This document shows, piece by piece, positions 4,685 to 4,763 of a stretch of 8,700 nt of DNA; position 1 is the first letter of the stretch; each line of letters begins with the position of its first letter. Source of the stretch: a virus; UHGV virus genome UHGV-1440302, one strand, 5' to 3'. The notes beneath the pieces are model-generated. The model was given only the letters and a program-made list of their open reading frames with translations. It ran no database searches and was not told the origin of the DNA. The translations under genes and the position numbers were made by a program.

Positions 4685-4763
4685 ACTGTTAACAGTTTAA
4701 CAAGACAACATTTTCACTTGACCCATAAAAATTATGAGTGTTAACCTGTTAACACTTTAACAT
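4685..4763. promoter_or_regulatory. Divergent promoter/operator region with a cluster of TGTTAAC palindromes
   Basis: 12-bp perfect palindrome ACTGTTAACAGT (4685-4696); composite palindrome GTGTTAACCTGTTAACAC (4738-4755) with two GTTAAC cores 8 bp apart; degenerate copies gtttaaca (4695-4702) and ctttaaca (4756-4763); TTGACC -35-like hexamer at 4718-4723 (+). Specific -10 elements could not be assigned. Confidence 0.55.

Follow-up and report, generated by a model that had tools for sequence, protein, structure and literature searches.

Arrays of 8-bp palindromic boxes between a small repressor-type gene and the replication gene of an Escherichia coli filamentous prophage: a probable immunity control region

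The prophage and the genes at the locus

The DNA analysed here (the window, 8,700 nt) is a tandem filamentous prophage at dif in Escherichia coli. A tandem prophage beside hipA/dif of E. coli strain E100341 is 99.9% identical to it, and for this reason the window phage is regarded as an integrated filamentous phage with a general lifestyle like that of CTXphi, YpfPhi and CUS-1. YpfPhi from Yersinia pestis and CUS-1 from E. coli K1 are likewise enterobacterial filamentous prophages of about 8.7 kb that lie in tandem at dif. A megablast search of the whole window against the phage collection returned no match, and neither did an Rfam search across the window.

The genes and sites discussed here are listed in Table 1; small coat-type genes and three small leftward open reading frames (ORFs) are also present in the window. 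The original prediction had placed the start of an ORF resembling ribbon-helix-helix (RHH) proteins at 4672 on the minus strand and that of Rep at 4787 on the plus strand. Both starts were found as predicted, and in the E. coli record with 99.9% identity PGAP likewise lets Rep begin at the ATG at 4787.

Both ends of the window (1-225 and 8407-8676) consist of a repeat-rich coding region with PVVHP-type repeats, and of the 66 bases at 1-66 all but two recur at 8635-8700 (64 of 66). The window therefore corresponds to about one phage unit (~8.6 kb), the cut point being inside the repetitive adsorption-protein gene. A strong nested hairpin is predicted in single-stranded DNA at 3663-3760 (-40.8 kcal/mol, z = -9.8), the arms of which carry dif-like XerC/XerD half-sites in inverted orientation (AGTGCGCATAA ... 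TTATGTTGAAA), and the junction between host and prophage in the E100341 record (L001; L numbers denote the loci compared) lies at AGTGCGCATAA. This hairpin with its inverted half-sites resembles the folded attachment site of CTXphi, by means of which CTXphi, like the window phage, integrates at dif.

Table 1. Genes and sites in the window, with the candidate binding sites for repressor A
Feature	Position	Strand	Remarks
Zot-like assembly protein	1010-2221		
Secretin	2383-3606		
Gene D, 62 aa, RstR-calc homologue, 'orphan'	3961-4149	-	no cognate CTTAGAA boxes in window
Gene B, 71 aa, paralogue of A, 'orphan'	4206-4421	-	no cognate GCATGC boxes in window
Repressor gene A, 60 aa, RHH-like, member of phrog_2503	4490-4672	-	
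Shine-Dalgarno GGAGA of gene A	4680-4684	-	7 nt before ATG, 2 nt from O1 box 1
O1 box 1, TGTTAACA, perfect 8-bp palindrome	4687-4694		good in window, L004, L003; degenerate in L008, L009
O1 box 2, GTTTAACA	4695-4702		good in window, L004, L008, L009; degenerate in L003
O1 slot 3, AGACAACA	4703-4710		degenerate in window; in relatives AGTTAACA (L003), TGTTAACA (L008), TGTTCACA (L009)
-35-like hexamer TTGACC, proposed Rep promoter	4718-4723	+	conserved in four lineages
Proposed extended -10, TG-T-TAACCT	4739-4747	+	18 nt past -35, inside O2 boxes 1-2
O2 box 1, TGTTAACC	4739-4746		
O2 box 2, TGTTAACA	4747-4754		
O2 box 3, CTTTAACA	4755-4762		
Rep, replication endonuclease, Phage_GPA family, presumed regulated gene	4787-6787	+	PF05840 E 5.9e-49; PGAP

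Gene A and its predicted product

The 60-aa ORF is a real gene, because its dN/dS of 0.018 in the comparison with the related lineage L003 points to strong purifying selection and because 100 distant relatives were found in a library of 1.8 billion proteins. In E100341 it was left unannotated by NCBI PGAP (L001 12520-12887, which equals window 4419-4786); it is annotated in L003 and L004. No function is assigned to phrog_2503, and Pfam gave no hit for the proteins A, B and D. Protein A is 42% identical to protein B.

An AlphaFold2 monomer model of A (55 relatives) reached a pLDDT of 94.9 and consists of an extended N-terminus followed by two helices. This predicted fold, an N-terminal strand plus two helices, matches RHH proteins. 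A Foldseek search of the PDB with the model gave nothing significant, and a profile search of PDB sequences gave weak matches to ParG (E 0.053) and TTHA0139 (E 0.13). Among the 55 relatives Pfam produced sub-threshold hits only (ParG in 7, RHH_3 in 2), hhalign aligned the A family to CopG with a probability of 3%, and A did not match any curated RHH sequence family above threshold. The closest structural or weak sequence matches are TraM of pED208, ParG, ParB-pCXC100 and omega. Taken from the model, an RHH fold of A is probable; the RHH-like character proposed originally thus agrees with the predicted fold, although no Pfam hit supports the assignment.

Searches of A against the CTX records gave no direct hit. 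In the published literature we did not find a description of an A-type protein, of its boxes or of an RHH assignment of the short RstR proteins.

An unannotated ORF of 67 aa from the same repressor family is present in Escherichia phage If1 (L018, NC_001954, 1171-1374; E 3e-5 to B, 7e-6 to A). It is located in the 'major intergenic region' and adjoins a 147-aa ORF (L018 662-1105) that is IS200-like by eye.

Two arrays of head-to-tail boxes

The intergenic region between gene A and Rep (4673-4786, 114 bp) contains five KTTAAC cores, which span 4688-4761. None of 20,000 dinucleotide shuffles reached this number, the maximum being three, so the cluster of palindromes pointed out in the original prediction is not a product of chance. 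TGTTAAC occurs six times on both strands of the window compared with 0.98 expected, and five of the six copies fall within 4687-4754. The cores start at 4688 and 4696 and again at 4740, 4748 and 4756, giving a spacing of exactly 8 bp within each group, and the strongest self-correlation of the intergenic region is at offset 8 in the window, L003, L004, L010 and L012.

The region can be described as a series of 8-bp palindromic boxes placed head to tail, with three slots in each of two arrays, O1 (4687-4710) and O2 (4739-4762). The two arrays are 25-nt repeats of each other, 52 bp apart, in direct as well as in inverted orientation. The box consensus, obtained from 20 boxes, is TGTTAACA, with invariant positions 3, 4, 6 and 7. 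A distance of 52 bp is close to five helical turns, and one may speculate that contact between the arrays is allowed.

On re-reading of the window sequence all elements on which the prediction had been built were found in place, including the degenerate TTTAACA copies (4696-4702 and 4756-4762) and the TTGACC hexamer, which is flanked by O1 and O2. Their grouping has to be revised in part. The 12-bp palindrome ACTGTTAACAGT (4685-4696) is present but does not stand as a functional unit, since its outer bases vary in relatives. The 18-bp composite GTGTTAACCTGTTAACAC (4738-4755) does contain two cores 8 bp apart; it is, however, only a near-palindrome with 8-bp arms around a non-palindromic CT centre, and it is not conserved among relatives. 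The outer bases of both palindromes are altered even in L004 and L003. The conserved unit, as judged from these alignments, is the 8-bp box TGTTAACA rather than the 12- or 18-bp palindrome. The half-sites had also been thought to be spaced at nearly a helical turn, as is typical for Arc, Mnt and CopG, which was not borne out, the actual period being 8 bp, head to tail. In Arc and Mnt of P22 and CopG of pMV158 the half-sites are about one helical turn apart in single operators, whereas the boxes of the window are 8 bp apart and form two arrays of three slots.

A triple-box search of IMG/VR yielded 12 contigs, and the protein family was found only in the two copies of the window phage. TGTTAAC-like 8-mers in head-to-tail arrays occur in unrelated viral contigs which do not encode the A protein family (L024-L028, L030, L031, L033-L035); some of these arrays have up to about 12 copies, others are three-box sets near promoter-like sequences. 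A TGTTAAC-like motif has thus come into use more than once, and the motif alone is therefore not diagnostic.

Conservation of the boxes among lineages

Four independent lineages with an A module, i.e. the repressor gene together with the intergenic region, were recovered. L004 is nearly identical to the window, the DNA of L003 is 83% identical, and the repressor proteins of L008 and L009 have identities of 85% and 83%. Relatives from other genera were drawn from protein-encoding contigs, IMG/VR and GenBank phages; scans of genome contigs with the repressor alignment and with Rep gave no confirmed locus.

All of them follow a common plan that is anchored on the -35 hexamer, namely three 8-bp slots, 7-8 nt, TTGACy or TTGATT, 15 nt and again three slots. 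O2 has three good boxes in every lineage (in the window TGTTAACC TGTTAACA CTTTAACA). O1 has two good boxes each time, which occupy slots 1 and 2 in the window, slots 1 and 3 in L003 and slots 2 and 3 in L008 and L009.

The degree of conservation can be compared with the divergence of gene A itself. The proportion of synonymous differences (pS) is 0.50 against L003, i.e. half of the sites are changed, and 0.87 and 0.78 against L008 and L009, which means saturation, while non-synonymous change amounts to only 1.5-8%. Over the same distances O2 is identical between lineages at 19-23 of 24 positions and the -35 at 4-5 of 6; of the 15 nt after O2 only 1-6 are identical, and of the 14 nt before O1 2-8. 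That boxes and -35 are kept though the synonymous sites of gene A are saturated argues that they are under selection and that the rest of the intergenic region is not.

The arrangement of O1 and O2 as an inverted repeat raises the question of whether they could instead form a hairpin in single-stranded DNA for minus-strand priming or packaging. O1 and O2 are indeed 94% complementary over 16 nt and the single strand folds at -10.6 kcal/mol (z = -3.0). Such pairing is, however, automatic for any set of palindromic boxes, a long stem is not preserved since the good slots of O1 differ among lineages, and a far stronger hairpin (z = -9.8) exists at the attachment site. In addition, no compensatory changes that would preserve the register of O1 and O2 were seen across the relatives. 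We consider a hairpin function of the arrays highly improbable.

Proposed promoter and ribosome-binding elements

In the four lineages the -35 reads TTGACC, TTGACG, TTGACT or TTGATT and its distance is 7-8 nt to O1 and 15 nt to O2 in all of them. The TAACCT hexamer preceded by TG at the junction of O2 boxes 1 and 2 can be read as an extended -10, and the same register is found in the relatives as TGTTAACGT (L003) and TGTTAACAT (L008, L009), where the hexamer is TAACGT or TAACAT. The proposed hexamer TAACCT agrees with the consensus at just three of six positions and would rely on the TG extension. Promoter prediction, which had been named as a check of the original proposal, did not back it: a consensus scan for promoters and terminators called nothing in 4673-4786, TTGACC and TAACCT included, and the proposal of a Rep promoter rests on the conserved spacing instead.

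For gene A no promoter could be located consistently across the relatives. A minus-strand CATAAT at 4731-4736 was considered as its -10 and dropped, as it is absent from L003, L008 and L009.

The leaders of Rep differ in their ribosome-binding elements. The A-type leader (window 4763-4786, ...TTATTCGTTTTTATG) has no Shine-Dalgarno sequence before the ATG of Rep, and the leaders of three other types described below (B, C and D, in L002, L010 and L023) have the G-rich Shine-Dalgarno sequences GGAGGGGAG, GGGGGG and GGAGGGGGG, respectively.

The box type follows the repressor

The type of the boxes, of the repressor and of Rep was tabulated for 13 loci. Repressor type predicts box type in all 13, and Rep type does not. 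In detail, type A repressors are accompanied by TGTTAAC boxes (KTTAAC core, 3-5 copies), type B by GCATGC boxes (2-3 copies), type C by GTGCAC-like boxes (6-7 copies) and type D by CTTAGAA boxes (3-4 copies).

Three of these types are found with almost the same Rep, its identity to that of the window being 98.3% in L010 (type C), 96.4% in L004 (type A) and 95.9% in L002 (type B). In L002 the 71-aa protein B occurs with GCATGC palindromes beside the nearly unchanged Rep, in L010 and L039 a 48% identical relative (C) occurs with GTGCAC-like boxes, again with an 8-bp period, and in L023 the 62-aa protein D occurs with CTTAGAA boxes that lie within a TTGACA-17-TATAAA promoter and on either side of it. 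Palindromic boxes phased at 8 bp were found at the equivalent position in other members of the family as well (L010, L012, L013). TGTTAAC boxes, in turn, stand ahead of a Rep that is only 47.7% identical to that of the window in L008, and ahead of a non-GPA replication module in L009; the small ORF that follows the boxes in L009 is of the kind that heads the RstA-type replication module in L005. Boxes and proteins of type B precede RstA genes in Vibrio pre-CTX and VAI2, and in CTX-calc the D-type boxes TCTTAGAA accompany RstR-calc. In E. coli at least four interchangeable immunity types would thus circulate on a replication backbone that is nearly the same throughout.

This distribution bears on two other explanations of the boxes. 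The first is that the Rep endonuclease binds them as iterons or as a plus-strand origin for rolling-circle replication. In favour of this, the repeats lie directly upstream of rep, and replication origins typically contain short direct repeats. However, Reps that are 96-98% identical, including their first 120 residues, are found behind three unrelated box types, and TGTTAAC boxes also stand before a Rep of only 48% identity (L008) and before a different module (L009). The second is that the boxes are sites of a host factor or mere promoter elements, unrelated to the neighbouring ORF. Here it can be said in favour that TTAACA matches the -35 consensus TTGACA at five of six positions on both strands, that RovA, a regulator of the host, binds to the rep promoter region of YpfPhi (PMC4266046) and that TGTTAAC arrays are found in unrelated phages without the A ORF family. 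On the other hand, a strict co-variation of boxes and repressor would not be expected within one host species with near-identical Reps, a promoter does not need three head-to-tail copies on each side, and a LexA-type CTGT-N8-ACAG site is absent from the region by eye. As the box type follows the repressor and not Rep, binding by Rep is extremely improbable and a host factor or simple promoter function very unlikely.

Stacked repressor-type genes

Three repressor-type genes are placed in a row on the minus strand (D, B and A), and only A has its cognate boxes beside Rep. Sites of the sequence GCGCATGCG do not occur in the window outside the Rep coding sequence, and none lie in intergenic regions; TCTTAGAA is not in excess in the window. 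A cognate B-type intergenic region is present in L002, L005, L016 and L017. B shares 66% identity with a protein of CTXphi/pre-CTX that is annotated as RstR, and the ig-2 region of pre-CTX carries the B-type GCATGC boxes; the records label the Vibrio homologue of B just as 'environmental RstR', and it could not be matched to a named or tested allele. Between D and RstR-calc the identity is 44% (E 4e-17).

Protein D is identical in L023, which has D alone, in L002 with D and B, and in the window with D, B and A. Protein B differs by one residue between the window and L002. A is the only repressor gene in L004, the backbone of which is nearly the same as that of L023 and L002. Furthermore, positions 4446-4489 of the window are a second copy of the backbone sequence 3915-3960 (~45 nt, ATATTGCTTCT..AATCTTCGTATCGATAGGTAACTA..ATG), so that one copy sits 3' of gene D and one 3' of gene A. 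In L004 and L023, which have one repressor gene each, this backbone sequence is found on the 3' side of that gene, and the copy at 4446-4489 therefore marks the joint at which the A module was added beside B. The recombination joint lies near 4440-4446 and adjoins a remnant of B-type intergenic sequence of about 30 nt. No terminator-like site was found between D, B and A in the consensus scan.

The nested series D, D+B and D+B+A suggests that the operator cassette was repeatedly replaced while the old repressor genes were kept. As a tentative extension, the window phage might be the product of an immunity-stacking ratchet, in which each new cassette of repressor and operator is inserted beside Rep and the older repressor genes stay intact but lose their own boxes. 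Expression of B and D could then come from read-through from the promoter of A. If the orphans are expressed, a lysogen would exclude three heteroimmune groups of phages, and if the ratchet is true, the phage would answer only to its newest repressor and could superinfect lysogens of the D and B types. Provided that they are active, stacked orphans would by simple means broaden the immunity of the host and at the same time let the phage escape that of its relatives, which bears on the accumulation of multiple filamentous prophages in pathogens.

The region as a probable immunity switch

Taken together, region 4673-4786 is likely to be the immunity control region of the phage, equivalent to ig-2 of CTXphi, with the boxes as operators of the RHH protein encoded by gene A. 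The original prediction of multiple repressor sites at the Rep promoter, forming an immunity and replication switch, is upheld by the co-variation of box and repressor type in 13 of 13 loci. An operator reading is also supported by the boxes and the -35 being the only conserved parts of an intergenic region whose neighbouring gene is saturated at synonymous sites, by the predicted RHH fold of A, and by the finding that RstR-calc, the relative of D, represses its own ig-2 (PMC11509585).

In the proposed mechanism each box would take up one dimer of A, and the dimers on adjacent boxes would lie next to each other, as in MetJ. O2 would overlie the Rep promoter at its extended -10 and start site, so that A bound there would block RNA polymerase and switch off Rep and the phage genes behind it. 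Repression through O2 would maintain the prophage and would give the cell immunity against phages that share these boxes. O1, which has the -35 on one side and the ribosome-binding site of gene A on the other, probably serves autoregulation of gene A, as suggested by its distance of only 2 nt from GGAGA. The binding of A to the boxes, one dimer per box, its cooperativity, the positions of the promoter elements and the autoregulation are what we infer from the sequences compared here. For a group of E. coli filamentous prophages without described regulation this would provide a concrete operator code, the box TGTTAACA, together with its repressor.

Comparison with known systems

CTXphi offers the closest parallel. 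Its rstR/ig-2 region resembles the window in that transcription of a small repressor gene and of the replication gene diverges at the left prophage end, that the intergenic region contains the rep promoter and allele-specific sites, and that many heteroimmune alleles exist on one phage backbone. In the loci compared here the regulator and the intergenic sites are likewise exchanged together and independently of the replication gene (13/13 loci). Eight rstR alleles were shown to repress solely their own ig-2 promoter in lux reporters in E. coli (PMC11509585); the tested alleles include the short ones calc (180 bp), 5 (204 bp) and 6 (192 bp), and RstR-calc represses its cognate ig-2 promoter in these reporters. 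There are also differences. The host of the window phage is E. coli, its Rep is a Phage_GPA endonuclease and not RstA, the alleles described so far do not include A with its TGTTAACA boxes, one phage carries a stack of three repressor-type genes, and the best-studied RstR (El Tor) is with 112 aa a different kind of protein. The A-type system is very probably an ordinary immunity switch of the rstR/ig-2 kind with a binding motif that has not been described before.

The rstR-6 primer (PMC11509585) encodes MKKKYTSLRV, which resembles members of the A family, but this is a hint only. RstR-calc was also considered as an A-type relative because the ig2-calc primer of the same study (PMC11509585) seemed to hold TGTTAAC; this candidate was rejected, as CTX-calc reads TGTTTAACC and its boxes are TCTTAGAA. 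It is possible that the short RstR alleles of CTXphi and the enterobacterial proteins form one RHH family that reads 8-bp palindromic boxes. The present analysis links short, uncharacterised RstR alleles of relatives of the cholera toxin phage to a probable RHH family.

For YpfPhi, YPO2273 at the equivalent position is a presumed repressor whose role is undemonstrated, and no operator motif has been described (PMC4266046).

The architecture of the boxes is most easily compared with RHH proteins of other functions. MetJ is an RHH protein whose operator consists of 2-5 head-to-tail 8-bp palindromic boxes (AGACGTCT), with one dimer on each box. The window has the same head-to-tail arrangement of 8-bp palindromic boxes, two to three per array. 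Unlike MetJ, with which there is no sequence relationship, it has two arrays, set 52 bp apart with a promoter between them, and gives no sign of a co-repressor. ParG of TP228, omega of pSM19035 and TraM of pED208 bind arrays of short repeats, direct or inverted, and autoregulate; the period is 8 bp in the ParG boxes, and omega binds 7-bp heptads. In contrast to what we propose for A, their roles lie in the partition, copy control or transfer of plasmids.

It could be argued from this comparison that A binds the boxes as an activator or as a centromere-binding protein of the partition type (ParG, omega, TraM) for the replicative form, since its best structural and weak sequence matches, TraM, ParG, ParB-pCXC100 and omega, are proteins that bind arrays of short repeats. 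Against this, gene A occupies the rstR position, and proteins related to A carry RstR repressor annotations, some of which have been tested. The proposed -10 lies within the boxes, which are therefore not upstream of the promoter, and the window contains no gene for a partner ATPase. We therefore consider an activator or partition role unlikely and favour A as a repressor of Rep.

A different association of Rep was seen at three E. coli loci outside dif (L036-L038), where the gene of an IS110-family transposase ends 2 nt before the start of Rep. Many of the 39 E. coli genomes with Rep have such an IS110-adjacent copy, in which Rep begins with MKTESAIL and a divergent repressor gene is absent, suggesting that these copies belong to a transposase-integrating variant of the same phage.
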